Virus record (IMG/VR): IMGVR_UViG_2617270950_000011
Origin: a virus
Lineage: Duplodnaviria > Heunggongvirae > Uroviricota > Caudoviricetes
Length of the DNA stretch: 30,900 nt
Reading direction: 5' to 3' (one strand)
Shown: positions 11,373 to 28,045 of the stretch, piece after piece
Layout of the letters: each line of letters opens with the position of its first letter
Position numbering within the stretch: position 1 is the first letter of the stretch
Notes under the pieces: generated by a model
The model's database searches: none
Told to the model about the DNA's origin: nothing
What the model saw: the letters and a program-made list of their open reading frames with translations, nothing else
Made by a program: the position numbers and the translations under genes

Positions 11373-12518
11373 TCAGCCAGGCCAGCGCCTCACGGTATCC
11401 GAGTAATACAGAAACGGTTTGCCATGATGGCGAATACCGTGCTGTATGGCACCGGCTACGGCGAAAACATTTTCAGCCAGGTCAAGGCTCCAGCCCACCA
11501 CAAAGCGCGTGCCACCGTCGATAACAAAGGTCACTTCCGGTGCGAATGGCCGCCCGTGAACCGGGTGCGCGCATTTCAGCTTCATGCCGTGACCGTCACC
11601 AATCCAGACATAATTCACCGGCATTTTTGACCAGTCGCGGCGCGTGAATCCCTCAAGCTGGCGGTATTCACTGCCGGTAACCCGTCCTTTTTGTTTCACC
11701 ACTTCCGGCAGTTTCTTCATTGCGCGGCGAATGGTGTCATAAGACGGCATGATATCGAGCATATAAGGCTCATCAGCGTGCCGGTGCTGCCATTCGGCAA
11801 CAAAATCCTCGTAAGCCTCGGTCATTGGTCGGCCGTTTGACTGGCGATACTGCGCCAGAAATTCGGGCAACCAGTTAATATCTTCGGCTTTTATTTCCTG
11901 GCGTTTACCTGGTGCCAGCAAAAGCAGGCGTTCAGCAGCGTTCTGTGCCTTATTAAAGGCCGCAATCCAGCGTTTCAGCGTGATTTCACTCAACACGCGA
12001 CTGTTTCCCTTTCTGGCGTTCGCTATCTCAACCATTGCCACAATGCGCTCATCCAGTTGCGAGTGTGACAGGCGGTCAACGATGAACCAGATAGCTTTAG
12101 CGCAGCTGAAACCGGGTTGTTGCGTGAATTTCAGCACCTCACTGACGATCGCAATGCGTGCGTCTGCCACCTGGCGCTGGTTTTCAGTCAGGGCATTGAG
12201 GCGTTCGACCATCAGTTGTGGTGATCCGCGATATGCCTCCACCGCATCAACCACGGCAGACGAGCGTCTGGCCTTTGTCACCACCGGAGCCGGTGATTCA
12301 TCGGCTTTTTGCGTCATCAGTTGCAGGGCATAACGTTCGCGTAATGCCTGCTGTGTCACTTCAGGTAAACAGTCAATGCTGTATTCAAAACCTTTAGCGC
12401 CTTTCTTGCGGCGTCTGCTGGTTTCGCTGGTTGCATACTTCCTGATTGAATAGCGAACGCCTTGCTCCGTTCCCGGCATCCCCGGTAATCCAACCAGTTC
12501 TTTGACTGAAGCAAACAT
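11373..12518 (-). pseudogene. Mu-type DDE transposase (MuA-like), C-terminally truncated after the second catalytic Asp
   Basis: 381 aa. N-terminus has the Mu winged-helix end-binding pattern (SVKELVGLPGMPGTEQGVRYSI...GAKGFEYSIDCLP); WIGDGHGMKL and ...YYSDTVRRWPG* match the first two DDE aspartate regions of MuA (recalled). The catalytic Glu and C-terminal domains are missing, and the next gene is gp37-like, not B. Confidence 0.75.
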
Positions 12519-12520
12519 AA

Positions 12521-12751
12521 TTACGCGACCTTACGAATGTAGCGGCTGGGCCAAATCTCCTCGGGCGGCACCCCCAGGCATTCCGCGATAATCCCCTCAT
12601 ACTTGGGAACATGGCGGTATACCGCGTTGTACAGATTGTTCTGACCCACGCCAGCTTTACGGGCCAGCGCCCTCATGCTTCCTTCTCTGGCTCTGACTTC
12701 CCCCAAAATTCTTTGAGGATGCCAATCAGGCTTAACTTCATTTCTCGCCAT
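12521..12751 (-). CDS. ner: Ner-like DNA-binding regulator
   Basis: 76 aa; ...WHPQRILGEVRAR...ALARKAGVGQNNLYNAV...PEEIWPSRYI matches the Mu Ner/Nlp pattern (recalled); sits immediately upstream of the transposase on the same strand. Confidence 0.75.
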   Translation of the reverse strand: MARNEVKPDWHPQRILGEVRAREGSMRALARKAGVGQNNLYNAVYRHVPKYEGIIAECLGVPPEEIWPSRYIRKVA

Positions 12752-12780
12752 GATTCATCTATCCTAAAAAGTTACGAAAT

Positions 12781-12804
12781 TTGATAACTAAACTTAGTTA
12801 TCAA
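12781..12804. promoter_or_regulatory. Operator-like 24-bp palindrome in the divergent ner/repressor control region
   Basis: TTGATAACTAA-AC-TTAGTTATCAA: 11-bp perfect inverted arms, with further TTGATA half-sites just upstream (~12779) and downstream (~12806); lies between the divergent Ner-like and repressor genes. Confidence 0.5.
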
Positions 12805-12935
12805 GTTTGATATAAGTATTGATCCACTTCTGCTTCATGTAAAGCAAAAAAACATCTTTCTTTTGTCTATTGTGGATCAATGGTTGCTGACAACACTAAA
12901 AGTTAATAATTTCAAATTGATAGGAAGAAAAGAAA

Positions 12936-13481
12936 ATGAACAAGCAAACAACAACATCTCTTTCTTTTCCTGGTGGTAGAAAAGAAAGCATTGCTGAGCG
13001 TCTGAAAAGGCTGATTGGCTCCCGCAGCGTCAGAGCTGCAGCAAGAGATTGGGGGCTTTCATTTTCAACACTAAACAATTATCTGTCTCGTGGCACTGAG
13101 CCATCCTTAAGTGTCGCCCTTCAGATTGCGTCTATCGAAGGAGTAAGTGTTGAGTGGCTATGTGGATTCAGTGATGCATCACAAGTGAATCGGTGCGAGA
13201 TCAAAGAAAATCAAGATGAAAGCAAGAAGATAATTATGACGATTATCAGCGCACTTGATGAAAAAGACTTAGAGCAGCTATCGAAAAATTTGGTTCTGAA
13301 TGGAGCCAAGTACTTAGCTCGGTTGTTAGAGCCTGAAAATCAAGATCTAATCCGCTTAGAAGGAAGGAAAAGAATAGCTGCATTACAGCTTGAAGGTATG
13401 TCTGACGAACGCGTCAGAGAGATTTTGGAAGAAACTGAGAGAAGTCGCAAATCTAACGCGGTAGAACCAAAAGCGGGTTAA
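12936..13481 (+). CDS. Phage repressor with CI-type N-terminal HTH (Phage_CI_repr-like)
   Basis: 181 aa; ...ERLKRLIGSRSVRAAARDWGLSFSTLNNYLSRGTEPSLSVALQIASIEGVSVEWLCG is a CI-type helix-turn-helix; divergent from ner across the operator palindrome. Confidence 0.7.
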   Translation: MNKQTTTSLSFPGGRKESIAERLKRLIGSRSVRAAARDWGLSFSTLNNYLSRGTEPSLSVALQIASIEGVSVEWLCGFSDASQVNRCEIKENQDESKKIIMTIISALDEKDLEQLSKNLVLNGAKYLARLLEPENQDLIRLEGRKRIAALQLEGMSDERVREILEETERSRKSNAVEPKAG

Positions 13482-13555
13482 TAGCATTAGCCCGCATTTT
13501 GCACTATATCGAGTATTTCGCATTGTTTGGAACGCCTTAAAAGACTAAAACCACA

Positions 13556-13711
13556 GTATCAAATGAGTTGCCGATTTTATAATAAATGACTAATTATTGC
13601 ACAATCGGTATCAAATAGACCTTATCCGCACATCTAGCCATCACCTGTTTTATTTCAGTATCTTACAGGTGATTTCACCTCCTTTCACTAAAACCCTTGT
13701 CGGTATCAAAT
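13556..13711 (+). repeat. Three direct copies of GTATCAAAT plus a 9-bp inverted repeat at the repressor/gene A junction
   Basis: GTATCAAAT at 13556-13564, 13608-13616 and 13703-13711; inverted repeat ATCACCTGT / ACAGGTGAT at 13640-13648 and 13665-13673; TTATCCGCA (DnaA-box-like) at 13622-13630. Function unknown. Confidence 0.4.
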
Positions 13712-15715
13712 GATTCACCTGGTTATATTAACGAGGCCGCCGCAGCATTCTCATGGAACAGCCCGAAAAAGGCTATTAACCCTTATCTGGACCCGGCGGA
13801 AGTTGCGCCGGTTTCTGCGCTTTCAAACCTGATCACTCTGTACGCTGCCGATAACGAGCAGGAACAACTGCGCCGCGAGGCACTGAGTGATCAGGTTTGG
13901 GAGCGTTATTTCTTTAATGAATCCCGTGATCCTGTCCAGCGCGAAATGGAGCAGGATAAGTTCATTAGCCGGGCAAAGTTGGCGCATGAGCAGCAGCGTT
14001 TTAACCCGGACATGGTCATTCTGGCAGACGTTAACGCCCAGCCTTCCCATATCAGCAGGCCGCTGATGCAACGTATTGAATACTTCAGCAGCCTTGGTAG
14101 GCCAAAGGCTTATTCCCGCTATTTACGTGAGACGATTAAGCCATGTCTGGAACGGCTGGAGCATGTACGCGACAGTCAGCTATCCACTTCTTTTCGCTTT
14201 ATGGCAAGCCATGAAGGGCTGGACGGCCTGCTGATTCTGCCTGAAATGAGTCAGGATCAGGTGAAACGCCTGTCCACCCTTGTTGCTGCGCATATGAGCA
14301 TGTGCCTTGATGCAGCTTGTGGCGATTTGTATGCCACCGATGACGTTAAGCCAGAAGAAATCCGCAAGACATGGGAAAAGGTGGCAGCAGAAACCCTGCG
14401 ACTGGATGTCATACCGCCTGCGTTTGAGCAACTCCGCCGGAAAAGAAACCGCCGTAAACCCGTGCCCTATGAACTCATTCCGGGTTCGCTGGCGCGTATG
14501 TTGTGCGCCGATTGGTGGTACCGGAAATTATGGAAGATGCGTTGCGAATGGCGGGAAGAGCAGTTGCGTGCTGTTTGCCTGGTCAGCAAAAAAGCATCTC
14601 CCTATGTCAGCTATGAAGCCATGATGCATAAACGTGAGCAGCGCCGTAAGTCGCTGGAGTTTTTCCGTTCTCATGAACTGGTGAACGAAGACGGCGACAC
14701 GCTGGACATGGAGGATGTGGTAAACGCCAGCAGCAGCAACCCTGCGCATCGCCGCAATGAGATGATGGCCTGTGTTAAAGGTCTGGAGCTTATCGCGGAA
14801 ATGCGCGGTGACTGCGCCGTTTTCTACACCATCACCTGTCCGTCACGTTTCCATTCCACGCTAAATAACGGCAGGCCCAACGCTGAATACGTTAATGCCT
14901 GGGCGTCTCTGCATCGTGTTCAGCAATTCCGCTTCTTTGGCATTCCGGGGCGTCAGGCTTACCGTGAACTGCGATTGCTGGCTGGTCAGGCGGCAAGGCA
15001 ACAGGGGGACAAAAAAGCAGGTGCGCCGGTACTGGATAACCCGCGCCTTGATGCAATCCTGGCTGCTGCTGATGCTGGTTGTTTTGCCACCTACATCATG
15101 AAGCAGGGCGGCGTACTGGTTCCCCGCAAATATCACCTCATCAGAACTGCTTATGAAATCAACGAAGAACCGACCGCATATGGCGATCACGGTATTCGTA
15201 TTTATGGCATCTGGTCACCCATTGCAGAGGGCAAGATCTGCACTCATGCGGTGAAGTGGAAAATGGTTCGTAAGGCCGTTGACGTTCAGGAGGCGGCAGC
15301 CGACCAGGGCGCTTGCGCCCCTTGGACTCGTGGCAATAACTGTCCCCTTGCTGAAAATTTGAACCAACAAGGGAAAGACAAATCAGCTGATGGGGATACC
15401 AGGACGGACATTACCTGCATGGATGACAAGGAGTTGCACGATTACCTGCACAGTATGAGCAAAAAAGAGCGCCGGGAACTGGCTGCAAGGTTACGCCTGG
15501 TGAAACCGAAACGGCGTAAAGACTACAAACAGCGAATTACAGACCATCAGCGACAGCAGCTCGTCTATGAACTGAAGTCCAGAGGATTTAATGGCAGCGA
15601 GAAAGAGGTCGATTTACTCCTTCGCGGCGGCAGTATTCCGTCAGGAGCAGGCCTGCGTATCTTCTATCGGAACCAGCGTTTGCAGGAAGATGATAAGTGG
15701 CGAAACCTGTATTAA
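13697..15715 (+). CDS. P2 gene A-family replication initiator homologue, apparently missing the HUH/Tyr catalytic core
   Basis: 672-aa ORF from a TTG start (true start uncertain). [23 protein letters not shown] and [27 protein letters not shown] resemble recalled P2 A segments, but no HxH or YxxxY motif occurs anywhere in the ORF. Confidence 0.7.
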
Positions 15716-15807
15716 TTACGCGGGTTAACAATTCGTGCTCTTAATAATACCAGGCATATCAGGCTGATGAACGTAAAAAAACGTTTTACATCAGTAAGAT
15801 TATTATA

Positions 15808-15827
15808 TACTGTAAATATAAACAGTG
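15808..15827 (+). promoter_or_regulatory. LexA (SOS) box
   Basis: TACTGTAAATATAAACAGTG fits CTGT-N8-ACAG with an AT-rich spacer; about 40 bp upstream of the small ORF and DinI-like gene; a second half-site (TGTATACAGTA) follows at ~15832. Confidence 0.7.
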
Positions 15828-15868
15828 GTTATGTATACAGTATTGCTTGTGGTGTCATAGGAGGAAAG

Positions 15869-16057
15869 ATGCAGGACTATTTTTTGGAGTCTTTGAAGCT
15901 CCAGCGCATTGATTTTTTTCTTAAGCTTGTAGCGGCTAGTGAGTGTAGTGATGAAGAGAAGGGGCTGGCTTTGCAGTGGGTTTCTGAACTGACAGATGAA
16001 CTCATGGCAAAAATCAGAACCCACGAATACAACCGCTCAATGGATGTCATCAGCTGA
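15869..16057 (+). CDS. Small SOS-controlled protein, possibly Tum-type antirepressor N-domain homologue
   Basis: 62 aa from the ATG at 15869, preceded by AGGAGG. Downstream of the LexA box and upstream of a DinI-like gene, the arrangement of the 186 tum locus; the function is inferred from context only. Confidence 0.4.
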   Translation: MQDYFLESLKLQRIDFFLKLVAASECSDEEKGLALQWVSELTDELMAKIRTHEYNRSMDVIS

Positions 16058-16067
16058 GGTGACTTTT

Positions 16068-16301
16068 ATGCGCATTGAAATAATGATCGATAAAGAGCAG
16101 AAGATTAGCCAGTCTACCCTAGACGCCCTTGAATCCGAGCTTTACCGCAATCTGCGCCCCCTATATCCAAAAACGGTAATTCGCATCCGCAAAGGTAGCT
16201 CTAACGGTGTGGAACTGACCGGACTGCAACTGGACGAAGAAAGAAAACAAGTGATGAAAATTATGCAGAAGGTGTGGGAAGACGACAGCTGGCTGCATTA
16301 A
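16068..16301 (+). CDS. DinI-family protein
   Basis: 77 aa: MRIEIMIDK...LDALESELYRNLRPLYP...KQVMKIMQKVWEDDSW aligns along its length with E. coli DinI (MRIEVTIAK...IDALAGELSRRIQYAFP...ISEILQETWESADDW, recalled); GAGGTG ribosome-binding site. Confidence 0.8.
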   Translation: MRIEIMIDKEQKISQSTLDALESELYRNLRPLYPKTVIRIRKGSSNGVELTGLQLDEERKQVMKIMQKVWEDDSWLH

Positions 16302-16309
16302 GAAACCTT

Positions 16310-16345
16310 GCCCCCAAGAGAATTTATTCTGATGGGGGCTAGTTT
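16310..16345 (+). terminator. Putative intrinsic terminator after the DinI-like gene
   Basis: GCCCCCA ... TGGGGGC stem with an inner AGAAT/ATTCT stem, followed by TAGTTTGGG. Confidence 0.45.
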
Positions 16346-16707
16346 GGGCAACGAGTGAAACGAGGCGTAAGGTGGGCGGCCATTTTGATAAGTGATTGTA
16401 CGCTTTGTGTTGTGAGTTCAACGGGTCGATGCAACGCTATCCTTAATCAAGGGGACGTTGCTCATACCCATCGATGCAATGAAAATCCATACTCATGGGG
16501 AAGACCAGAATGTCCCTGCCTTTTTCATTTTGTTCAGCACATGCACTATGGCCATTGCCTTCCCAAGCTAGCTATCGTAATCACTCAGCGTCAGTAAACT
16601 ACTGAAAAATTGTTTTACCTTGTATATCAATAATGCCAAATCATACCCAAAAAATCGAAAATAATTAGATCGACAGGCAGAAGGCAATGTGAATAATCTT
16701 AAAAACC

Positions 16708-16768: not shown

Positions 16769-17350
16769 ATGAGCGAAAGGAAAAGAATTGAAGATCAGTA
16801 TCTTCTCTATCATTTAACATGTATGGATAATCTACCTAGTATTTTAGACACAGGATTAAGATCTCGTGCATCAGTAAAAGGTGAGTTTGTTGATGTGGCC
16901 GACGGTGAAATAATAACAGGTCGCGAAGCATTAAATTTGCAAACAATGGTTCCTTTTCATTTCTTTACTAAGAATCCATTTGATGGAAGAGTCCTGAAAG
17001 ATCATAAGGAAAAATCATTTTGTATTATTTCGGTTTGTCGGGCATTTGCCAAAGAAAATGGTTGGAAAGTTATCCCTAAACATCCATTATCCACCAGTTC
17101 TGTTATAGACCTCTTAGATTATGAACAAGGAATGGCCCAAATTGACTGGGAGCTTATGAATATAAGGGATTATAAAAATGCAGAATGCAAATCTGTATGT
17201 ATGGCTGAGTGTTTATCAAGTGTAACGGTCGAGCCGAAAAATTTCCATTGCATCTTTGTCAAAAATGATAACGAAAAAAAATATGTTGAAGGGTTGATAA
17301 AACAACAAGGATTAAGTATATTGATAACGATCAACACTTATATGTTCTAA
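16769..17350 (+). CDS. darT: DarT, DUF4433 ssDNA ADP-ribosyltransferase toxin
   Basis: 193 aa; N-terminal LLYHLTCMDNLPSIL matches the DarT YHITHIDNL signature; VPFHFF and a downstream AECLS (candidate catalytic Glu) motif; followed 4 nt later by a macrodomain gene. Confidence 0.8.
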   Translation: MSERKRIEDQYLLYHLTCMDNLPSILDTGLRSRASVKGEFVDVADGEIITGREALNLQTMVPFHFFTKNPFDGRVLKDHKEKSFCIISVCRAFAKENGWKVIPKHPLSTSSVIDLLDYEQGMAQIDWELMNIRDYKNAECKSVCMAECLSSVTVEPKNFHCIFVKNDNEKKYVEGLIKQQGLSILITINTYMF

Positions 17351-17354
17351 TTCT

Positions 17355-18326
17355 ATGATTAAGTATGCAAGCGGAAATCTTCTAAACTCTACATCGCAAG
17401 CTCTTGTGAATGCTGTAAACTGCCAAGGAGTCATGGGAAAGGGTATTGCTTTGGCTTTTAAAGAAACTTTTCCCTATAATTTCGAAGTTTATAAGAGAGC
17501 ATGCACCACTGGTACAATGAAAATTGGACAGGTTTTAATTGTAGAGGAAAAGGGAAAAATAATCGTAAACTTTCCCACTAAAGATAGTTGGAGAAAAAAA
17601 TCAACATATGATTTTATCTCGCAAGGCCTTGAATCTTTAGCAAAAATTATAGACGAAAAAAAAATTACATCAATATCAATACCACCTTTAGGCTGTGGTA
17701 ATGGGGGCCTCGATTGGAATAAGGTTGAGGCTCTTATTTTAAAAACTTTTCAAAATTTAGATAATGTTGATGTGGTAATTTATCCGCCTGCAACTAACAA
17801 TCAGCTTTCAAAAAATAAAAATGTTATTAATGCTAAGCATCTTTTGGTTCACTACGCCTATGGAAAATTAAAAGTTAAGCAAAAATATTCCCTTTATACA
17901 GTTTTTTATATTTGCGAATGTATTGAGAAAGCAAATCTTTTTTTATTCGATTTTAAACATGGTCGGCCATACTCTTCTGAGTTAGAAAATATTATGAAGG
18001 ATATAGCAAACCTTAAAGTTGAGTTGCAAGGAGATTTTGATGCTTTTATTGAAGATTATATTAATACTCATCAATCCAAAGAGTTACAAACCGAGTTTGG
18101 TAAACTAATCTCAACTTTAAATCCAAGTATAAGTTTTCTCAATGCTCTTAAAAATAAGATTGATTATACAGATAGCGTACATGTGATCACGAGAATTGCT
18201 AAAGAAAAAGATCATGGCTTGCATATTGACAATTTCAAAGAATATGAAAATATTGTGCAGCATTTAATTAAAAATGGATTGGTAATCGAAGATATTTTTA
18301 ACGAACTAAAAATAAAGGGAAGTTAG
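17355..18326 (+). CDS. darG: DarG, macrodomain antitoxin
   Basis: 323 aa; N-terminal ALVNAVNCQGVMGKGIALAFKETFP is a macrodomain signature; translationally coupled to darT (stop 17348-17350, ATG 17355). Confidence 0.8.
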   Translation: MIKYASGNLLNSTSQALVNAVNCQGVMGKGIALAFKETFPYNFEVYKRACTTGTMKIGQVLIVEEKGKIIVNFPTKDSWRKKSTYDFISQGLESLAKIIDEKKITSISIPPLGCGNGGLDWNKVEALILKTFQNLDNVDVVIYPPATNNQLSKNKNVINAKHLLVHYAYGKLKVKQKYSLYTVFYICECIEKANLFLFDFKHGRPYSSELENIMKDIANLKVELQGDFDAFIEDYINTHQSKELQTEFGKLISTLNPSISFLNALKNKIDYTDSVHVITRIAKEKDHGLHIDNFKEYENIVQHLIKNGLVIEDIFNELKIKGS

Positions 18327-18999
18327 TAGCGCTATTTTCAATTTTTTTGCTGAAATTGCGCATGCACACTCTTACGCATTATAGATGCGGCGTTAATCCC
18401 GCCAGGAGTGTTGTTTAATAAATTGAACTATTTCTGCATTGAAGGATCAACTTACGCATTCGCTGACAACGCAGGCACTCTCCTGGCTAAGCAGAAATTC
18501 AGAGTAACCAACTGGCACTTTTACAACAATTTTCTTATCAGTTGCGGCTCCATGACTTTCTGGTGGGATAACAAAGCAATTAAGGCGTGGTATTGTAAGT
18601 ATCCCGCATAATCATGCTAGTAACATTTGTCCCCCATGTAACCTAATTAAGGCAACTTCCGCTCTTCGCTCACAGTGAACCTCCATGTTTGTAAACCCGT
18701 ATATTTCGTTTTTCAAGTGGTCATTCAGATACGGATTTTCACTTCTCTTGGCTGTGCATGTCTATGCCGCATGAATCCGCATGATCGTTTGAGGATCGTT
18801 TTTGCTGAGGCCCCCCAGAACTGGCGGGCTTTTGCTTATGTCATGCAGGTGCATGAAAACCACTGCATAAAGCGGGCAGGCGTGGCGGGGATACGAGCGC
18901 GCGCTAACTCATAAATCTTAGATTATTAGTGGATTTATCTCATTGAAATGTGCACTATTCCCAGCATTGAGTTGTACCAGATGTCTTTATGGAGGGACT

Positions 19000-20766
19000 G
19001 TGGCTTTTGTAACTGATATTCGGCTTGAAGATAATGCTATTGCTGCACCTGCGACAGCACAGGTTATGGCTCAGAGGCTAGGATCTGTATTACGTAAGAG
19101 ATATGAAGAATTCATCCATAAAAGAGAGTGTGCACCAGGCCAAGCAGACTATGATGTAAAAATGGCTAGCAGGGCTTTAGCTGCATTCACTATGTATCAG
19201 TTAGGATGTGTGGATGATAAGTATGCAGGGGAGTCTGTATGTGATAGTAGTGAAGATGGTGGTATAGATGGAATAGCAATCAACCATAACGAAAAAATCG
19301 TTGTTGTTGTTCAATCAAAATTTCACCAATCGGGAAACGGCACTTGGACAAGAGCCGATTTTATGTGTTTTAAGGATGCTTGTGAGAAGCTACAAAGTGA
19401 AAGATACGAATTATTTGATTCCATATTGCAAAATAAAAGCGGGGAAATAAGTGCGGCTTTAAGTAGTTTTGAATACAAGTTCATCTTTGCGATGGCGCAT
19501 ACAGGTAAAAAAGGTGCTGCAGAGGAAATATTAAATGATATGCGGGAATGGCAATATCAATTAAACGCTGCAGCTTTTACACCTGAGGATGAGCCTAAAG
19601 AGAACTGGGGATTTCAGGTTCATTTAATATCCTCTGAAGATATGATGCATTGGTTACAGAATGGCTCTCGAAATCAAATTGATCTTAACAGGGTTGAAAT
19701 TGAGCGTTTTGGATTTTTGAATGAACCATATCAAGCTTTTTACGGGGCTATTAGTGGTGATCAAGTTGCAGAATGGTGGGAAGAGCATGGTGCTCGATTA
19801 TTTACAAAAAACATAAGGAATATGCTTGGTAAAACAGAAGTGAATGAGGAAATAAAAAAGACAGCTATAGATAATCCTGATATGTTTTGGTTTTATAATA
19901 ATGGGATTACTGTACTGGTTAAGGAGGTTGTTCCTCATAGACGAAACGCAGCTCCTAATATAGAGAGAGGGATTTTTGATTTTCGTGATGTAAGTGTCAT
20001 TAATGGTGCACAAACAGTCAGTAGTATTGGCGCATGTAAAGATGCGCTTGGTGAAAACATATATAGACTCAAAGTGCCAGCTAGATTCATTGTTATAGAT
20101 GATGATACTGATAATTTAACTGCAAATGCGATTACAAAAGCTAACAATTTCCAAAATAGAGTATTGGGAAGAGATTTTGCGTCGCAGCAGGCAGATCAAC
20201 ATAGATTGGCAAGGGAGTTAGTGCTTGAAGGATATCAATATCAGTTACTAAGAACAGATGAAGATCATTCACAGACAAATACGAAAGTCATTGACTTGGA
20301 TGAGGCGCTCAATGCACTCGCATGTTTAAGTAAAAATAATACGGTTGTATCGACACTAAAATCAAATCGCGGTAGGTTTTTTGAAAATTTTGAAGGCTCT
20401 CTATATAAAACTATTTTCAATCCAAGATTAAGTGGTTTAAAACTTATCAATACTGTTCTACATTTTAGAGTTATAGATAAGTTGATCGGTAAAACATTAC
20501 TATCAGTAGATAAAACTACCCATAGTCGCAAGCATTTAATTATTACGCATGGTAATAGATACTATGCGTCTGTGCTATTGAGCAACGTTTCTGGGATACA
20601 TAATAGCTCAGAAATTCTTGTTCCAGATGAAAAAAATCTTTCCGAAGAATTAAGTGCATTAATTCAACGTGCTGAAGAGTACATTGAAGATAATTACCCG
20701 AATGCCTATCCGGCAAGATTTTTTGCAAATCCAACGAAAATACAAGAGTTATACGATAATGTTTAA
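19000..20766 (+). CDS. Uncharacterised 58x-aa to 607-aa protein, tentatively AIPR-family with an N-terminal PD-(D/E)xK-like motif; candidate defence gene
   Basis: Maximal ORF 18943..20766 starts at TTG; the GTG at 19000 follows GGAGGG and the ATG at 19066 is an alternative. Motifs seen: DGGIDGIAINHNEKIVVVVQSKF, FWFYNNGITVLV, VINGAQTVSSIG. No Walker A, so not P2 Old. AT-rich. Confidence 0.5.
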   Translation: MAFVTDIRLEDNAIAAPATAQVMAQRLGSVLRKRYEEFIHKRECAPGQADYDVKMASRALAAFTMYQLGCVDDKYAGESVCDSSEDGGIDGIAINHNEKIVVVVQSKFHQSGNGTWTRADFMCFKDACEKLQSERYELFDSILQNKSGEISAALSSFEYKFIFAMAHTGKKGAAEEILNDMREWQYQLNAAAFTPEDEPKENWGFQVHLISSEDMMHWLQNGSRNQIDLNRVEIERFGFLNEPYQAFYGAISGDQVAEWWEEHGARLFTKNIRNMLGKTEVNEEIKKTAIDNPDMFWFYNNGITVLVKEVVPHRRNAAPNIERGIFDFRDVSVINGAQTVSSIGACKDALGENIYRLKVPARFIVIDDDTDNLTANAITKANNFQNRVLGRDFASQQADQHRLARELVLEGYQYQLLRTDEDHSQTNTKVIDLDEALNALACLSKNNTVVSTLKSNRGRFFENFEGSLYKTIFNPRLSGLKLINTVLHFRVIDKLIGKTLLSVDKTTHSRKHLIITHGNRYYASVLLSNVSGIHNSSEILVPDEKNLSEELSALIQRAEEYIEDNYPNAYPARFFANPTKIQELYDNV

Positions 20767-20796: not shown

Positions 20797-21321
20797 TTAG
20801 AAATGGTATTCTTGGAATTCAATAACACCTTCTTTTATGAAATTGTTTATTTCTTGTAATCTTTTTTGCAATGGCAATAATTCATTACGTACAAATACTT
20901 TACTCGCCTTCTCTACATCTCCAAAGCCCCCAACATTATTAGGCATTATCCCCATCATTTGCGGCGGCACACGGTGTGCCGCCATCATGTCGTCCCGGCT
21001 CACGTTCTTGATATTTAGAAACTCATCCTTCGCCGCGACTTCTGACAACGGGATAATCTGAAGCCCGTCCTTTTTGCCGTTAGGAGAGTACATAAACAGG
21101 TTGCGGAAGTTGCCTGGCCCTTTGGCGCTTTTCATTGCGTTGCGGAGGTTGTTCACATCTTCTTGGTTCTGCGCGGCATCGGTCATGTACATGATGAAGC
21201 CTGCATGACTACCGTTAATGTAATACTTGCGGCGGAACAGCGTGGCGGACTCGTTGAGCAGGGCCGACGGAATGGCAGAAAGATAACCGGGCAGGCCGTA
21301 GACCTCCTGGTTGATGTCCGG
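20797..21321 (-). pseudogene. Portal protein (P2 gpQ-like) C-terminal fragment
   Basis: Frame open from 21321 down to the stop at 20797; ...AHRVPPQMMGIMPNNVGGFGDVEKASKVFVRNELLPLQKRLQE resembles portal C-termini (recalled). The N-terminal portion is absent. Confidence 0.5.
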
Positions 21322-22244
21322 TTATCGGCTTTGTTGCGCCCACGGTTGAATAGCGCACCGGACCAGAACGGATAAGCACTGTGTGTCAGGCTGGATGGCG
21401 TGGAAAAATAGGTTTGTCGCCATTTCTTGTGAATAGCCATACCGGAAGCCACTTTGCGCAGCTCCTGGAATTTCGGTATCCAGAAATATTCATCCAGATA
21501 CAGGTTGCCGTGATAACTCTGGGCAGTGCGGGCATTGGTGCCGAGGAAGTAAAGCGTGGCCCCGTTAGGAAGCACCATCGGATCGCCTTTCAACTCCACC
21601 TCCACTTCTTTGGCGAAGTCGATGATGTACTGCTTAAAGACGTGGGCCTGTGCCTTGCTGGCGGAAAGGAAAATCTGGTTACGTCCGGTCAGCAGGGCGT
21701 CAATCAGGGCTTCACGGGCAAAGTAAAAGGTCGCGCCGATCTGGCGTGACTTCAGCAGGTTGCGGATGCGGTTGGTTTTTCCGGCTTCCCACCAGTGGCG
21801 CTGGTAGTTGAACATGGAGGAATGGAAGATTTCTTCCAGCTTCTCAATCTGCTCATCGGTGAAAACATTCTTTTCCGGCTGACGGCGTGGGCCTTTGTTG
21901 CGGTTGGCGACGTTAGGGTTTAAGTCGGATTCGTTGCCGCCATTGTTAAACTTGCCGATCCGCGCGTGGCGCTCAGACTGGCGCGCCAGCAGGTCAATCT
22001 CTTTGAAATCTTTCCCTTCTTTGTGCTCCTTCATGATGAGCTGGCAGTAGCGTGCGGCGGTGGTGAGCTGCATCTGATCCAGCGGCCCATAGTCACCCCA
22101 CTTGTCGCGTTTTTTCCAGCTGTGAACGGTTGCAACTTTCTCGCCCAGCATTTCAGCAATGCGGGCTACGCGGTATCCCTGAAAGTACAGCAGCATGGCC
22201 TGCCGACGGGGATCGAGATCTGCGGGTGTCAGTGTGGTGTTCAT
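21183..22244 (-). pseudogene. Terminase large subunit (P2 gpP-like) N-terminal ATPase fragment running out of frame into the portal fragment
   Basis: Walker A-like [12 protein letters not shown] and Walker B-like [10 protein letters not shown]; credible sequence ends near ...[11 protein letters not shown] (~21350), after which the frame reads low-complexity junk to the stop at 21183. The nuclease half is missing. Confidence 0.7.
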
Positions 22245-22290
22245 GGCACAAACCTACAGCCTTGAATGAAGGCTTTCCCCGCCTGCGGTT

Positions 22291-22308
22291 TGTGTGGTTG
22301 TCTGGACA
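22291..22308. promoter_or_regulatory. TGT-N12-ACA dyad (Ogr-type late promoter element) in the gpP upstream region
   Basis: TGTGTGGTTGTCTGGACA; the P2 late-promoter dyad is normally centred near -55. It lies about 50 bp from the gpP start and may be the PP or PO element. Confidence 0.4.
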
Positions 22309-22632
22309 GACGGCATTGGTAATACATCTGGTGTCATTCCAGGCAAAACCATTACGGAACGACAGGCAGCGGAAGGGCTGATCTCCAACGTGCTGCGTGT
22401 GGAGCGGGCGCTGGAAAGGTGTGTGAAGCAACAGCCGCCGCAGAAAGTGTATGACGCGGTGGTGTCATTTGCCTTCAACGTGGGGACAGGCAATGCCTGC
22501 AGCTCCACGCTGGTGAAATTGCTCAATCAGCGGCGCTGGGCGGATGCGTGCCGACAGTTGCCGCGCTGGGTTTATGTGAAAGGTGTTTTTAATCAGGGGC
22601 TGGATACTGGAGCTGAAGGTGTATGTGGATGA
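22294..22632 (+). pseudogene. T4-type (GH24) phage lysozyme fragment, truncated at both ends
   Basis: VSFAFNVGTGNACSSTLVKLLNQRRWADACRQLPRWVYVKG parallels the RrrD-type lysozyme core ([41 protein letters not shown], recalled). The N-terminal catalytic region is missing and the C-terminus reads into the fibre fragment. Confidence 0.65.
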
Positions 22633-23578
22633 CCTGATGGCAAAACACCTTGCCGCACAGGACCCACATTCACAGTATGCACCCAAAGAAAGTCCGACGT
22701 TTACCGGAACCCCCAAAGCGCCAACGCCAGCGGCGGGGAATAATACCACGCAGGTTGCGACCACTGCGTTTGTTCAGGCGGCACTGACGGCCCTTATTAA
22801 TGGTGCGCCAGCCACGCTGGACACGCTGAAAGAAATAGCCGCAGCCATTAACAATGATCCGAATTTCAGTACCACCATTAACAATGTGCTGGCACTAAAA
22901 GCACCGTTGTCGAGTCCGGCACTCACCGGAACGCCAACAGCCCCCACGGCGGCGCAGTCGGTCAACAATACACAGATTGCCACTACAGCTTTTGTGAAAT
23001 CGGCAATTGCAGCAATGGTGGGGTCTGCACCTGCGGCACTGGATACACTGAACGAACTGGCGGCGGCGCTGGGGAATGACCCGAACTTTGCCACGACAAT
23101 GCTTAATGCGCTGGCAGGCAAACAACCGCTGGATAATACGCTGACTAATTTGAGTGGAAAGGATATAGAAGGAATTCTTACTTATCTTGGTTTAGGGCAT
23201 TTGGGAAATGCGGCAGGTAGAAATGTTGGTAATGCTAATAGTTATGAAATCCCTGACATGAGCTATTTTCAGCTAACAGGAAAAGGAAGCGATAATTTGT
23301 TGGTTAAAGGTCCGAATGGTTTAATTATACAAATATTTCGAAGAAATCTTCCTAATAGTACAACTATTGGTATTCCACAACAGCTTCCTATTACATATCC
23401 AACGCCATTCCCTAACGGAGTATGGGGTGTGTTTGTCACAAAAATGACATATGCACAAGTCGTTACGTCGTGCGAAAGTATATATAATGATGGGTTTACT
23501 GCTGTAACTTGTTTGACATCAGGAACCAGCAGTGATTCAAAAGTTTCAGGCGCTGTATTTATTGCATTTGGATATTAA
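22583..23578 (+). CDS. Tail fibre protein, C-terminal portion (N-terminally truncated)
   Basis: VYVDDLMAKHLAAQDPH collar-like motif, then tail-fibre repeat units (TGTPKAPTPAAGNNTTQVATTAFVQAAL..., TGTPTAPTAAQSVNNTQIATTAFVKSAI...ALDTLNELAAALGNDPNF) and a variable AT-rich tip. About 185 residues of an H-type fibre are missing upstream. Confidence 0.65.
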   Translation: MFLIRGWILELKVYVDDLMAKHLAAQDPHSQYAPKESPTFTGTPKAPTPAAGNNTTQVATTAFVQAALTALINGAPATLDTLKEIAAAINNDPNFSTTINNVLALKAPLSSPALTGTPTAPTAAQSVNNTQIATTAFVKSAIAAMVGSAPAALDTLNELAAALGNDPNFATTMLNALAGKQPLDNTLTNLSGKDIEGILTYLGLGHLGNAAGRNVGNANSYEIPDMSYFQLTGKGSDNLLVKGPNGLIIQIFRRNLPNSTTIGIPQQLPITYPTPFPNGVWGVFVTKMTYAQVVTSCESIYNDGFTAVTCLTSGTSSDSKVSGAVFIAFGY

Positions 23579-23580
23579 AT

Positions 23581-24057
23581 ATGAAAAGTTGTGATGATTA
23601 TCAACATGATTCTTCTTATGATTTCATATGGGATAAGGTAAATGCCAGATTTATGGCGTATATATTAAAAAATGAATATGAAAGAAATGGAATGTGGCCT
23701 AAGGAAGGGGTGGATATTTCAAATGAGACTGCTTGTGAATTCATGAAACAACCTCCGGAAGGAAAAATTCTTGGGGCAGATGATAATGGTATGCCTGCAT
23801 GGATTGATACGCCACCACTCACATATACAGAGTTAGTGGCTAAAGCAAAAACTGAAAAACAAGCACGTATAATAGAAGCTGTAAATTATATAAATAACAA
23901 ACAATGGCAGGGGAAAGCATTGCTTGGGAGACTGAATGCTACTGAACTGGAAATGTATAACATATGGCTTGATTATATTGAAGCATTAGAGGCTATTGAT
24001 CCATCAAAAGCCTCTGATACAGCCTTTCCGACTAAGCCATTTAACGATTCAGTCTGA
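23581..24057 (+). CDS. Tail fibre assembly protein (Tfa / gpG-like)
   Basis: 158 aa with the typical C-terminus ...QWQGKALLGRLNATELEMYNIWLDYIEALEAIDPSKA; immediately follows the fibre. Confidence 0.75.
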   Translation: MKSCDDYQHDSSYDFIWDKVNARFMAYILKNEYERNGMWPKEGVDISNETACEFMKQPPEGKILGADDNGMPAWIDTPPLTYTELVAKAKTEKQARIIEAVNYINNKQWQGKALLGRLNATELEMYNIWLDYIEALEAIDPSKASDTAFPTKPFNDSV

Positions 24058-25072
24058 GAATTGGATTAACAAACAACCGATCAATAATCAAGCTTAAACC
24101 AAGGCTGATAAAAAAAATGACTAAAGACAGGGATGTTGTTTTTAGTAAAATGTTGTCCACGATAAAAGGAATATTGAAATATTTCTCTAAGACTCTGAAA
24201 ACACAAACATGAATTAAATAAATTCCGTATGTCAGAGGTGCTATTTTTTCAATGATTAAAATTATTTTTTTATTATTGATGTTTATTTTTGTAAATGCAA
24301 TTACTATCAAGGAACACATTAACAACATATTAATCCCTGAGTCAAATGGGTATATGTTAAAGTTATATTTGTTAACGCTAAAATAAACAAACATCACATG
24401 TAGTAAAAATATAAAAGGGATGCTATATACAATATAATGTGTTTTAATGTCAACTCTTTTTAATAATCCGCCGACAACAAAATATAAAACCCATGTATCT
24501 ATGCTCTGTAATGGGATTAAATGATGGTAGTATTGAGAGGATTGGCTTAGAGAGTATGAGTATAATGAATAATAAAAAATGAAAGCCAAAACTATAATCA
24601 CCTTAAGGCTGTCGGCTTGTGGGATTTTATTGACTATGTATTGAATTGCTGGAGCGGTTAAATACAAACCGATAAAGGCATAAACAAACCAGAAATGCAC
24701 AGAGAGTGAAATAGTGCTTTTAGATATTAATGAGAAATATTCAAGTAAATTCGATGACGTTCCATTATTCCAGCTAATAATATAGTAATGTGCTAATGAA
24801 TATATTACAAAAGGGATAATAATGGCGGGGATTCTTTTTTTATAAAACAAAAGTGGAGTGCTATTTTGTCTGTTGAGTAGGTAGTATCCACTTAACATAA
24901 AGAATATTGGTAAACCAATGCGTACAATTGATTGTGCAAAAAGAGTTTGTATTTGTATACTTTCTGTTTGGTTACTGGTAACAGTATAAGCATAGTCGGG
25001 CGTGACATGAATTCCTATTACAAAAATACAACAAATAATACGTAACAGGTCTAAAGAAATATCTCTTTTCAT
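24041..25072 (-). CDS. Acyltransferase-3 family integral membrane protein (O-antigen/surface glycan acyltransferase-like)
   Basis: 343 aa, polytopic and very AT-rich; N-terminal MKRDISLDLLRIICCIFVIGIHV fits the acyltransferase_3 start (R-x-D-x-x-R ... H). Opposite strand to flanking late genes, in the P2 Z/fun position; its 3' end overlaps tfa by 17 bp. Confidence 0.7.
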   Translation of the reverse strand: MKRDISLDLLRIICCIFVIGIHVTPDYAYTVTSNQTESIQIQTLFAQSIVRIGLPIFFMLSGYYLLNRQNSTPLLFYKKRIPAIIIPFVIYSLAHYYIISWNNGTSSNLLEYFSLISKSTISLSVHFWFVYAFIGLYLTAPAIQYIVNKIPQADSLKVIIVLAFIFYYSLYSYSLSQSSQYYHHLIPLQSIDTWVLYFVVGGLLKRVDIKTHYIVYSIPFIFLLHVMFVYFSVNKYNFNIYPFDSGINMLLMCSLIVIAFTKININNKKIILIIEKIAPLTYGIYLIHVCVFRVLEKYFNIPFIVDNILLKTTSLSLVIFFISLGLSLIIDRLFVNPILRLNR

Positions 25073-25133
25073 ATAGTATTCAATCTGATTTAAATGGATG
25101 ACAGATGCGCAATAGTAAAATAGATTTGCGTAT

Positions 25134-25166
25134 AATAATCAATACATATTGAGATATATTGATTAT
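25134..25166. promoter_or_regulatory. 10-bp perfect inverted repeat upstream of the acyltransferase gene
   Basis: ATAATCAATA ... TATTGATTAT separated by 13 bp, 60-95 bp upstream of the acyltransferase ATG; candidate operator. Confidence 0.3.
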
Positions 25167-25192
25167 TTTATGAAAAGCCCTCATGGCGCTGT

Positions 25193-25210
25193 TGTGCCAT
25201 TTCCCATACA
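25193..25210 (+). promoter_or_regulatory. Ogr-dependent late promoter element (PF-like) upstream of sheath gene FI
   Basis: TGT-GCCATTTCCCAT-ACA (TGT-N12-ACA), centred about 84 bp upstream of the FI start codon, consistent with a -55 dyad and a short leader. Confidence 0.5.
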
Positions 25211-25285
25211 ATCCCCATCGCGTGCACCCTGCGCGTATCAACCAGAACATAGGCAGACCCCCTCTACAACCGGAGAGACTGCCTT

Positions 25286-26458
25286 ATGGCTCAGGATTAC
25301 CACCACGGAGTGCGCGTTGTTGAAGTCAACGAAGGCACCCGATCCATTACCACGGTGAGCACCGCCATCGTGGGCATGGTCTGCACGGGCGATGATGCCG
25401 ATGCAAAAATGTTTCCTCTTAATAAACCCGTGCTGATCACTGATGTGCTGACTGCCAGCGGTAAAGCGGGTGAGTCCGGCACGCTGGCCCGTTCGCTGGA
25501 TGCCATCGCTGACCAGGCAAAACCCGTGACCGTTGTTGTGCGTGTGCCGCAGGGTGAAACGGAAGAAGAAACCACAACCAATATCATTGGCGCAGTGACC
25601 GCCGAGGGTAAAAAAACAGGTATGAAAGCCCTGTTATCTGCCCAGTCACAGCTCGGCGTTAAACCGCGCATTCTCGGCGTGCCGGGTCACGATAACAAAG
25701 CCGTTGCGACTGAGCTGCTGAGTGTGGCGCAAAGCCTGCGCGGGTTTGCTTACCTGTCAGCGTATGGCTGCAAGACAGTGCAGGAGGCGATCACTTACCG
25801 TGAAAACTTCAGTCAGCGCGAAGGGATGCTGATCTGGCCTGACTTTACTGGCTGGGACACGGTGCTGAATGCCGAAGCAACGGCATATGCCACCGCCCGT
25901 GCGCTCGGTCTGCGCGCCAAAATTGATGAGCAGACCGGGTGGCACAAGAGCCTGTCCAACGTAGGCGTGAACGGTGTCACCGGAATTTCTGCTGATGTGT
26001 TCTGGGATCTGCAGGACCCGGCAACCGATGCGGGACTGCTTAACCAGAACGACGTCACCACGCTTATCCGCAAAGACGGTTTCCGCTTCTGGGGTTCCCG
26101 CTGCCTGAGTGATGACCCGCTCTTTGCCTTCGAAAACTACACCCGCACGGCGCAGGTACTGATGGACACGATGGCAGAAGCGCATATGTGGGCGGTGGAC
26201 AAACCGCTGAACCCGTCGCTGGCCCGCGACATTATCGAAGGTATTCGCGCCAAAATGCGCAGCCTGGTCAGTCAGGGCTATCTCATTGGTGGTGATTGCT
26301 GGCTGGACGAGTCGGTGAACGATAAAGACACGCTGAAAGCCGGAAAACTCACCATCGATTACGACTACACGCCAGTACCGCCACTTGAAAACCTGATGCT
26401 GCGTCAGCGCATCACCGATCAGTACCTGGTGAATTTCTCCAGCCAGGTAAGCGCGTAA
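25286..26458 (+). CDS. Contractile tail sheath protein (P2 gpFI-like)
   Basis: 390 aa (P2 FI is about this size); in the FI position ahead of the tube gene; GGAGAG ribosome-binding site. Confidence 0.75.
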
Positions 26459-26467
26459 GGGGGCAAC

Positions 26468-27736
26468 ATGGCTTTACCACGTAAATTAAAACATCTGAAC
26501 CTGTTTAACGACGGGAACAACTGGCAGGGGATCGTAGAGTCGCTGACGCTGCCGAAATTCACCCGCAAATATGAGAAGTATCGCGGCGGCGGTATGCCGG
26601 GGGCGGTGGATGTGGATCTGGGACTGGATGACGGCGCACTGGATACTGAATTTTCCATTGGCGGTACTGAGCTGCTGCTGTTTAAGCAGATGGGCAAAGC
26701 TACGGTGGATGGCATCCAGCTGCGCTTTACCGGCTCTATCCAGCGTGACGATACCGGGGAAGTGCAGGCCGTGGAGCTTGTGGTGCGTGGACGTCACAAA
26801 GAAGTGGATTCCGGCGAGTGGAAGACGGGCGAAAGCAACACCACCAAAGTGACCAGTACCAACAGCTACGCGAAGCTGACCATCAATTGTGAGGTGCTCT
26901 ACGAAGTGGACCTTATCAACATGGTGGAAATTGTGGACGGTGTCCGGGCGCGAAGTGCTGATTTTCGGGAAACGCTGAATACCCGCCGTGAAAAATCGTG
27001 GCACAAGACCACAGTTGGGGAAGTGGTGAAGGAAATAGCCGCGCGTCACAAGCTGAAGATGGCACTGGGTAAAGACCTGTCAGATAAACCCGTGGAACAT
27101 ATAGACCAGACTAATGAGAGTGACGGCAGTTTTCTGATGCGGCTGGCGCGCCAGTACGGTGCTATTGCGTCGGTGAAAAATGGCAATCTGTTATTCATTC
27201 GGCAGGGACAGGGTAAAAGCGCCAGCGGTAAACCACTGCCGGTGATCACTATCACACGTAAGGACGGCGACAGTCACCGCTTTACCCTGGCAGATCGCGG
27301 ATCTTACACGGGCGTAATTGCCAGCTGGTTGCATACCCGCGAACCCGCGAAGAAAGAAAGCACCACGGTGAAGCGTAAGCGCAGGACCGCAAAGCAGAAG
27401 AAAGAGCCGGAAGCGAAGCAGGGCGATTACCTGGTGGGTACGGATGAAAACGTGCTGGTACTTAATCGTACTTATGCCAACCGGGGCAACGCTGAACGAG
27501 CGGCGAAAATGCAGTGGGAACGCCTGCAACGCGGCGTTGCGTCATTCTCGCTACAACTGGCGGAAGGGCGGGCAGATCTCTACACGGAAATGCCAGTGAA
27601 AGTCAGTGGCTTTAAACAGCCGATAGATGATGCGGAATGGACCATTACGACTCTGACACATACCGTCAGCCCGGATAATGGTTTTACGACCAGTCTGGAG
27701 CTTGAAGTGAGGATTGATGATTTCGAAATGGAATGA
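26468..27736 (+). CDS. In-frame fusion of tail tube FII (N-terminal ~145 aa) to tail protein D (C-terminal ~275 aa)
   Basis: N-terminus MALPRKLKHLNLFNDGNNWQGIVESLTLPKF is tube-like; from RARSADFRETLNTRREKSWH...HIDQTNESDGSFLMRLARQYGAIASVKNGNLLFIRQ the sequence is gpD-like (recalled). The FII 3' end, E/E', T, U and D 5' end are absent. Confidence 0.7.
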   Translation: MALPRKLKHLNLFNDGNNWQGIVESLTLPKFTRKYEKYRGGGMPGAVDVDLGLDDGALDTEFSIGGTELLLFKQMGKATVDGIQLRFTGSIQRDDTGEVQAVELVVRGRHKEVDSGEWKTGESNTTKVTSTNSYAKLTINCEVLYEVDLINMVEIVDGVRARSADFRETLNTRREKSWHKTTVGEVVKEIAARHKLKMALGKDLSDKPVEHIDQTNESDGSFLMRLARQYGAIASVKNGNLLFIRQGQGKSASGKPLPVITITRKDGDSHRFTLADRGSYTGVIASWLHTREPAKKESTTVKRKRRTAKQKKEPEAKQGDYLVGTDENVLVLNRTYANRGNAERAAKMQWERLQRGVASFSLQLAEGRADLYTEMPVKVSGFKQPIDDAEWTITTLTHTVSPDNGFTTSLELEVRIDDFEME

Positions 27737-27826
27737 TTCTTCGCAATGGAGAACTTTTAAGTTTGCAAAATGGGATAATGCGGTATCATTATTGTGAATT
27801 TAGCAAAAATGGGGAGAACTCGAAAA

Positions 27827-28045
27827 ATGATGATTTGCCCACTGTGTGGAAGTGCCGCCCATACTCGCAGCAGTTTTCAGGTATCTTCATTGACCAAAGA
27901 GCGTTACAACCAGTGCCAGAACATTAACTGCAGCCATACTTTTGTTACTCATGAAACTTTTGTTCGTTCGATTGCAACGCCAAAAGAGTCAAATCCGGTT
28001 CAGCCGCATCCAATGAAATCAGGGCAGGTGGCGCTCTCTCTTTGA
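27827..28045 (+). CDS. ogr: Ogr/Delta-family zinc-finger late gene activator
   Basis: MMICPLCGSAAHTRSS...KERYNQCQNINCSHTFVTHETF...VQPHPMKSGQ parallels P2 Ogr (MFHCPLCQHAAHARTS...KERYHQCQNVNCSATFITYES...VRPHPLPSGQ, recalled); start taken at the ATGATG at 27827 after GGGGAGAA. Confidence 0.85.
   Translation: MMICPLCGSAAHTRSSFQVSSLTKERYNQCQNINCSHTFVTHETFVRSIATPKESNPVQPHPMKSGQVALSL

Follow-up and report, generated by a model that had tools for sequence, protein, structure and literature searches.

A P2-family gene A reading frame lacking its catalytic core and native start in a decaying Escherichia coli prophage

The closest described relatives of the reading frame examined here are the gene A proteins (gpA) of P2-family phages, namely those of P2 (NP_046795.1, 761 aa) and 186 (NP_052289.1, 694 aa) and the Elveevirus-type gpA of 804 aa, which is represented by CARTA_43 of phage Cartapus and by WP_089649367.1 of E. 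coli. In P2 A, the HUH metal-binding motif appears as HWH at residues 399-401, and YIAKY is found at residues 450-454. Y450 and Y454, which we take to be the two active-site tyrosines of P2 A, have reportedly been assigned this role, and the assignment is supported by the presence of YIAKY at just these positions of the P2 sequence.

The DNA analysed in this study (30,900 nucleotides; hereafter the window) carries an open reading frame that is approximately 30% identical to P2 A and 186 A and belongs with them to Phage_GPA. As in these two proteins, motif I is conserved and the 3' third of the gene contains a predicted origin nick site, whereas HWH and YIAKY, both present in P2 A, are missing. 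When the reading frame was compared with the Elveevirus-type gpA, the retained residues were found to be 100% (E. coli E423) and ~97% (Cartapus) identical, and the downstream neighbours and the in-gene origin core are the same; the remnant is, however, without residues 397-527, the native codons 1-11 and the coupling to the upstream gene dam. In terms of its overall state, the locus resembles the pseudogenes of E. coli cryptic prophages, where multiple deletions and a nested mobile element are seen, cargo and defence genes are kept, and replication and morphogenesis genes are lost. The sole oddity in this comparison is the long open frame that remains after both lesions and is called as a protein by automatic annotation. 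The reading frame is, with high probability, a doubly disrupted pseudogene of a P2-like rolling-circle initiator, and it represents no new kind of protein but an ordinary form of gene remnant, left behind as the prophage decays. The features of the remnant are as follows.

13697..15715, plus strand: open reading frame of 672 codons with a TTG start, remnant of P2-family gene A (replication endonuclease)
13728..14881, plus strand: 5' segment of gene A, nt 35-1188 of the intact 2415-bp gene, 100% identical to E423
14822..14854, plus strand: retained Rep motif I block (11 residues), aligned with P2 FITLTAPSKYH
14879..14881, plus strand: deletion junction with a 3-bp AAC microhomology, AAC being present at both breakpoints
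14882..15715, plus strand: 3' segment of gene A, nt 1582-2415 of the intact gene, 100% identical to E423

By descent, the 672-aa product is a member of the gpA family. The initial annotation had recognized a gene A-family replication initiator, and the assignment is borne out by the P2-family gene A relatives and by matches to Phage_GPA (PF05840; E = 3.9e-70) and to the PHROGs family phrog_91, "nicking at origin of replication" (E = 4e-201). The Phage_GPA match covers only profile positions 1-212 of 321 and ends at residue 402, and no match was returned when NCBIfam was searched with the truncated 672-aa protein. Approximately 375 N-terminal and 270 C-terminal residues of gpA are kept. As a working enzyme, the product lacks three defining features: the HUH motif, the tyrosines and a start of its own. 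At NCBI, the E. coli product is entered either as "replication endonuclease" or as "hypothetical protein"; the entries deposited as "replication endonuclease" should be flagged as a pseudogene. We also noticed that two PHROGs families cover only the C-terminal 246 or 118 residues of gpA, namely phrog_14885 (residues 427-672) and phrog_23581 (residues 555-672), with the corresponding region of the reading frame at 15212-15715 of the window; these families suggest that fragments of gene A are often annotated elsewhere as separate phage proteins.

The two conserved gene A-like blocks that had first drawn attention to this protein are indeed present and abnormally close to each other: Rep motif I (the FuTuTxPS strand) occupies residues 376-386, and the block NAWASLHRV... 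starts at residue 400, leaving 13 residues in between. In intact relatives, the same two blocks are separated by 144 (E423), 150 (P2) and 146 (186) residues, and the spacing of roughly 115 residues given for P2 A in the initial annotation was thus too low. A regular-expression scan of all 672 residues found neither HxH, the HUH metal-binding motif, nor YxxxY, the paired active-site tyrosines, in agreement with what had been read from the sequence by eye. In the intact allele of E423, exactly one HxH (HWH, residues 444-446) and one YxxxY (YIAKY, residues 498-502) exist, and both are located within the missing segment.

Base-by-base comparison with E423 revealed a gap of exactly 393 bp (131 codons), the flanks of which are 100% identical. 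The 131 missing residues correspond to residues 397-527 of the intact 804-aa protein and contain ...RVAEPHHDGTVHWHLLCF... and ...TSYIAKYISKNIDG...; in the alignment with P2 A and 186 A, the missing HWH and YIAKY align with HWH at 399-401 and YIAKY at 450-454 of P2. An in-frame internal deletion that removed the HUH motif and both tyrosines, as proposed in the initial annotation, is therefore confirmed by the gap relative to E423 as well as by the alignment with the P2 and 186 proteins. Since the loss of the motifs is seen directly on comparison with the sequences of intact relatives, the question of chance does not arise. Profile searches give the same picture: with the intact proteins of E423 and P2, Phage_GPA is matched over its full length (1-321), as is REP_ORF2-G2P, the catalytic module common to gpA and the gene II proteins of filamentous phages, whereas in the remnant the Phage_GPA match is cut off at 212/321. 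In E423, the REP_ORF2-G2P match extends over residues 408-506 and hence lies wholly inside the deleted segment.

The deletion begins 10 residues past motif I, and the conserved AWAS...QF block lies beyond its end. It is not a clean domain excision but a cut through the catalytic domain, in which the motif I strand stays and the rest of that domain is lost. With this segment, the strands and helices bearing the HUH motif and the two tyrosines are gone, which makes nicking and joining at the origin impossible, and the product cannot initiate rolling-circle replication. An AlphaFold2 model of the intact 804-aa homologue (mean pLDDT 36.6, pTM 0.24) was based on a shallow alignment of 28 homologues with 83-98% identity, and only its secondary-structure string was used, with low weight; the PDB yielded no sequence match to the intact protein at E <= 1. 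For a deletion bounded by two AAC triplets, the most likely origin is microhomology-mediated illegitimate recombination or replication slippage, in which case the frame would have been preserved by chance. An in-frame outcome has a prior of about 1 in 3 for a random deletion and is unremarkable, but it does leave room for selection and in this respect speaks against the pseudogene explanation.

The initial annotation had itself considered that some gene A subfamily might naturally lack the catalytic motifs. When gene A was searched by megablast against 5,426 complete E. coli genomes, it was found in 1,289 of them, and in each of the best 30 of the 1,289 records the match is split in two, with 1,988 query bases extending over 2,381 bp. 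The best match is E. coli E423, in which gene A is annotated as a "replication endonuclease" of 804 aa; gpA of phage Cartapus (Peduoviridae, Elveevirus) is likewise 804 aa in length. The best 120 homologues have 783-949 aa, every one of them with both Pfam domains, and an alignment of 28 homologues shows no variation at H444, H446, Y498 and Y502. These results rule out a natural gene A subfamily without the HUH and tyrosine motifs.

An assembly or sequencing artefact was considered only because the deletion junction falls exactly on a codon boundary, and nothing was found in its favour. The exact 672-aa product is present in the public collection on at least 17 contigs according to a cluster look-up, and 23 contigs were read in a look-up of the encoding contigs. 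The carriers are E. coli drafts from NCBI, ENA and Logan assemblies (e.g., GCA_000711515.1 and GCA_009824785.1), and the neighbouring genes agree among the five places shown, with which similar places are grouped. An assembly artefact is excluded by this recurrence of an identical product in independent assemblies from the three sources with the same neighbours, and the allele is real. Taken together, an artefact or a motif-less subfamily as the source of this allele is hardly conceivable. The carrier contigs are near-identical (0-5 mismatches over 22 kb), and two of them have no mismatch to the window over 22 kb. Short probes for the deletion junction and for the joint between the Mu-like element described below and gene A detected neither in the 5,426 complete E. 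coli genomes, and an exact 42-mer over the deletion junction was absent from the GTDB species representatives and the JGI metagenome contigs. Since it is confined to near-identical contigs and its junctions are absent elsewhere, the allele serves as a marker of one narrow lineage.

The second lesion, which the initial annotation had missed, concerns the 5' end of the gene. Homology to intact gene A starts only at position 13728 of the window, which is nt 35 of the gene, and the first 10 codons and part of codon 11 of the reading frame come from the DNA of a Mu-like prophage. The features of this prophage in the vicinity of gene A are listed below.

11373..12518, minus strand: Mu-type transposase of 381 aa, compared with 695 aa in the intact form, shortened by a deletion inside the Mu-like prophage
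12521-12751, minus strand: Ner-like gene of the Mu-like prophage
12936..13481, plus strand: Mu-like prophage gene for a repressor-type HTH protein, reading in the direction of the gene A remnant
13482..13727: terminal non-coding stretch, the repressor-side end of the Mu-like prophage, with its last base at 13727 (...CACCTGGTTATA)

In other E. coli genomes, the Mu-like element stops at the identical base, and the genes next to this end there are disrupted bcsA, sgrR, citD, xdhA and paaA as well as a P2 capsid gene. Judged from these junctions, a Mu-like phage appears to have transposed into codon 12 of gene A, after nt 34. The target pentamer expected to be duplicated by the insertion is TTAAC (13728-13732); upon simple transposition, dam-ATGAGCCATGCTGATATGAACAACTGCAGCGGCTTTAAC would adjoin the right end of the Mu-like element, with TTAAC duplicated. 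The other end of the element falls outside the window. Public draft contigs break near the start of the window, probably due to several copies of the element in the genome, and a search for its far end via the gp48 protein gave matches in other genomes only.

The first 13,727 nucleotides of the window constitute the remnant of this Mu-like transposable prophage. Genes for the tail sheath, tube, tape measure, DNA-circulation and baseplate proteins are found on its minus strand, while its early, lysis and head genes are gone. The transposase gene is joined to the late region, with the deletion joint located between ~11282 and 11395. With only 381 of the 695 aa of its transposase left and the gene fused in this way, the Mu-like element, too, is defective. 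In E. coli AST46 (NZ_AP043639.1), furthermore, the same Mu-like end adjoins a P2-family major capsid gene, and the element has therefore entered P2-like prophages more than once.

In E423 and Cartapus, gene A begins at its native ATG, which forms an ATGA overlap with the stop codon of dam, the gene upstream, and has ACGGAG in front of it. The remnant has no start codon of its own in the early operon, and Mu-like DNA up to position 13727 stands in its place; the insertion parts the remnant from the ATG, the Shine-Dalgarno sequence, the dam overlap and the early operon. Transposition after nt 34 would thus explain how the gene came to be deprived of its start codon, ribosome-binding site, coupling to dam and early promoter. 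The TTG listed as the start is inside the Mu-like DNA, nine codons past an in-frame TGA. No Shine-Dalgarno pairing was found at this TTG (position 13697; dG of +1.8 kcal/mol, compared with -6.1 kcal/mol at the native ATG), nor was a Shine-Dalgarno sequence found at the next in-frame ATG (codon 84). A consensus scan of the plus strand from 12700 to 16400 detected no sigma-70-like promoter. In the record of phage 186, the translation of A is annotated as dependent on that of the upstream reading frame, and a terminator early in A works when A is untranslated. Because the 186 gene needs upstream translation and has this early terminator, the loss of the coupling to dam is all the more serious.

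The initial annotation had concluded that a stable but catalytically dead protein would be left in the prophage. This is not supported, as the native start and the Shine-Dalgarno sequence were lost to the Mu-like insertion and the TTG is without pairing; no positive indication of translation was seen, and the remnant is presumably not expressed. The only conceivable source of a transcript is a possible read-through from the Mu-like repressor gene, which is transcribed towards the reading frame, and no terminator-like site was predicted on the plus strand between this gene and position 14639. Such read-through, together with the open frame of 672 codons and the listing of the protein by gene callers and NCBI, speaks against the pseudogene explanation. 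The same observations, namely the long frame left by an in-frame deletion and the repressor gene reading towards it with no predicted terminator in between, along with the origin nick core retained within the gene, would favour an expressed and stable dead initiator, which keeps both terminal regions and might still bind the origin or partners in the host, serving for instance as a decoy against superinfecting P2-like phages. We nonetheless regard such an initiator as very unlikely, given that the reading frame is cut off from its native start, Shine-Dalgarno sequence, dam coupling and early operon with only an unpaired TTG in their place, that the catalytic domain is cut through with the motif I strand orphaned (as far as the secondary structure of a low-confidence model can tell), and that the lesions are too recent for any signal of conservation. 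P2 A is, in addition, said to act in cis, which weakens the idea of a decoy acting in trans. Even more improbable is a specific version of this idea, in which read-through supplies a low level of nicking-dead gpA that binds the origin or a host partner and interferes with P2-like phages, the frame having been retained for this purpose.

In the 3' part of the pseudogene, the following feature was identified.

15324..15343, plus strand: P2-type origin nick-site core GGACTCGTGGCAATAACTGT, retained, which aligns with the annotated nick sites of P2 (29892) and 186 (28576)

The P2 nick-site sequence aligned to this core is GGAGTCCTGTCAATAACTGT, and CAATAACTGT is invariant among the four aligned nick-site sequences. 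A cis-acting origin nick site is accordingly predicted, by alignment, to be kept inside the remnant. Downstream of gene A, a small hypothetical gene is followed by a DinI-family gene, like tum in 186. Inactivation of gene A might then have been adaptive, with the loss of nicking itself selected, since nicking or over-replication of the chromosome in situ could follow when a dead prophage with an origin and an SOS-linked DinI/Tum-type gene is derepressed. The retained origin core, the DinI-family gene in the position of tum and two independent hits in one gene within a very short time would fit with such selection; however, E423 and many other genomes keep gene A intact, in E423 within the same dead prophage and with no apparent problem, the head, lysis and tail genes have also been lost by similar deletions, and two events in one lineage provide no statistical support. 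Selection for the loss of nicking is hence considered unlikely; in any case, it concerns the cause of the loss and is compatible with the pseudogene explanation.

The relative age of the lesions can be read from E423 (NZ_CM173464.1, 3488000-3519500), in which this prophage is found at an identical location, with rcdA and ybjL on either side, and shows 3 mismatches to the window over ~16 kb. In the E423 copy, gene A is intact and the Mu-like insertion is absent, while deletions of 1,343 bp and 4,387 bp are common to E423 and the window. Because these two deletions are shared, the capacity to make particles had already been lost from the prophage of the common ancestor, and because gene A of E423 is intact, both lesions of gene A are recent events in an already dead prophage. 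Their recency has left no time for further decay, which is why the frame is still open; that it is open at all would be due only to both lesions being very recent and neither of them shifting the frame. Exact look-ups found no record of a single-event intermediate, either with the deletion and without the Mu-like insertion or vice versa. The locus accordingly offers a tidy and datable case of prophage decay, in which a prophage dead in the ancestor shared with E423 then lost the core of its initiator and was split by a Mu-like phage. The E423 copy also has a separate central deletion that joins a terminase fragment to tail gene I, and it is useful as an outgroup for ordering the steps of decay.

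The P2-like prophage itself extends from 13728 to ~27957 of the window, is of the Elveevirus, Cartapus type, and is inserted at the rcdA/ybjL site of E. coli, with the host genes ybjL and ybjM following it. Relative to Cartapus, it has five internal deletions, one being the 393-bp deletion in gene A and the other four falling in 20852-27957 of the window.

1,343-bp deletion: across portal and terminase, junction overlap of 15 nt
3,771-bp deletion: from scaffold to endolysin, junction overlap of 13 nt
4,970-bp deletion: from lysB to the tail fibre gene, junction overlap of 2 nt
4,387-bp deletion: from tail tube FII to baseplate hub D, junction overlap of 1 nt
26468-27736, plus strand: FII::D fusion reading frame, open over 422 codons, product of the 4,387-bp deletion

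Fragments of the portal, terminase, endolysin and tail-fibre genes remain after these four deletions. The FII::D fusion matches Phage_tube (1-154 of 165) and Phage_GPD (78-302 of 305, the C-terminal part of D); E423 has the same fusion, and RefSeq annotates both halves there as pseudogenes. The cos region is found in its joined form at 18753-18905 of the window, where the right end of Cartapus (33275-33368) passes directly into its left end (1-59), an arrangement that integration of the genome would be expected to produce.

The cargo genes, in turn, are intact, namely those for DarT (PF14487) and its macro-domain partner DarG, an AIPR protein and an acyltransferase, and the DarT/DarG and AIPR defence cargo has stayed so throughout the decay of the prophage. 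The DarT/DarG and AIPR-family genes are located at 16769-18326 and 18943-20766 of the window with a GC content of 32-42%; this defence cargo sits in variable regions and has outlasted the deleted essential phage genes. The acyltransferase gene (Acyl_transf_3; 24041-25072, minus strand; GC ~31%) lies between the tail-fibre assembly and sheath genes, is also found in E423, and may be a lysogenic-conversion gene.
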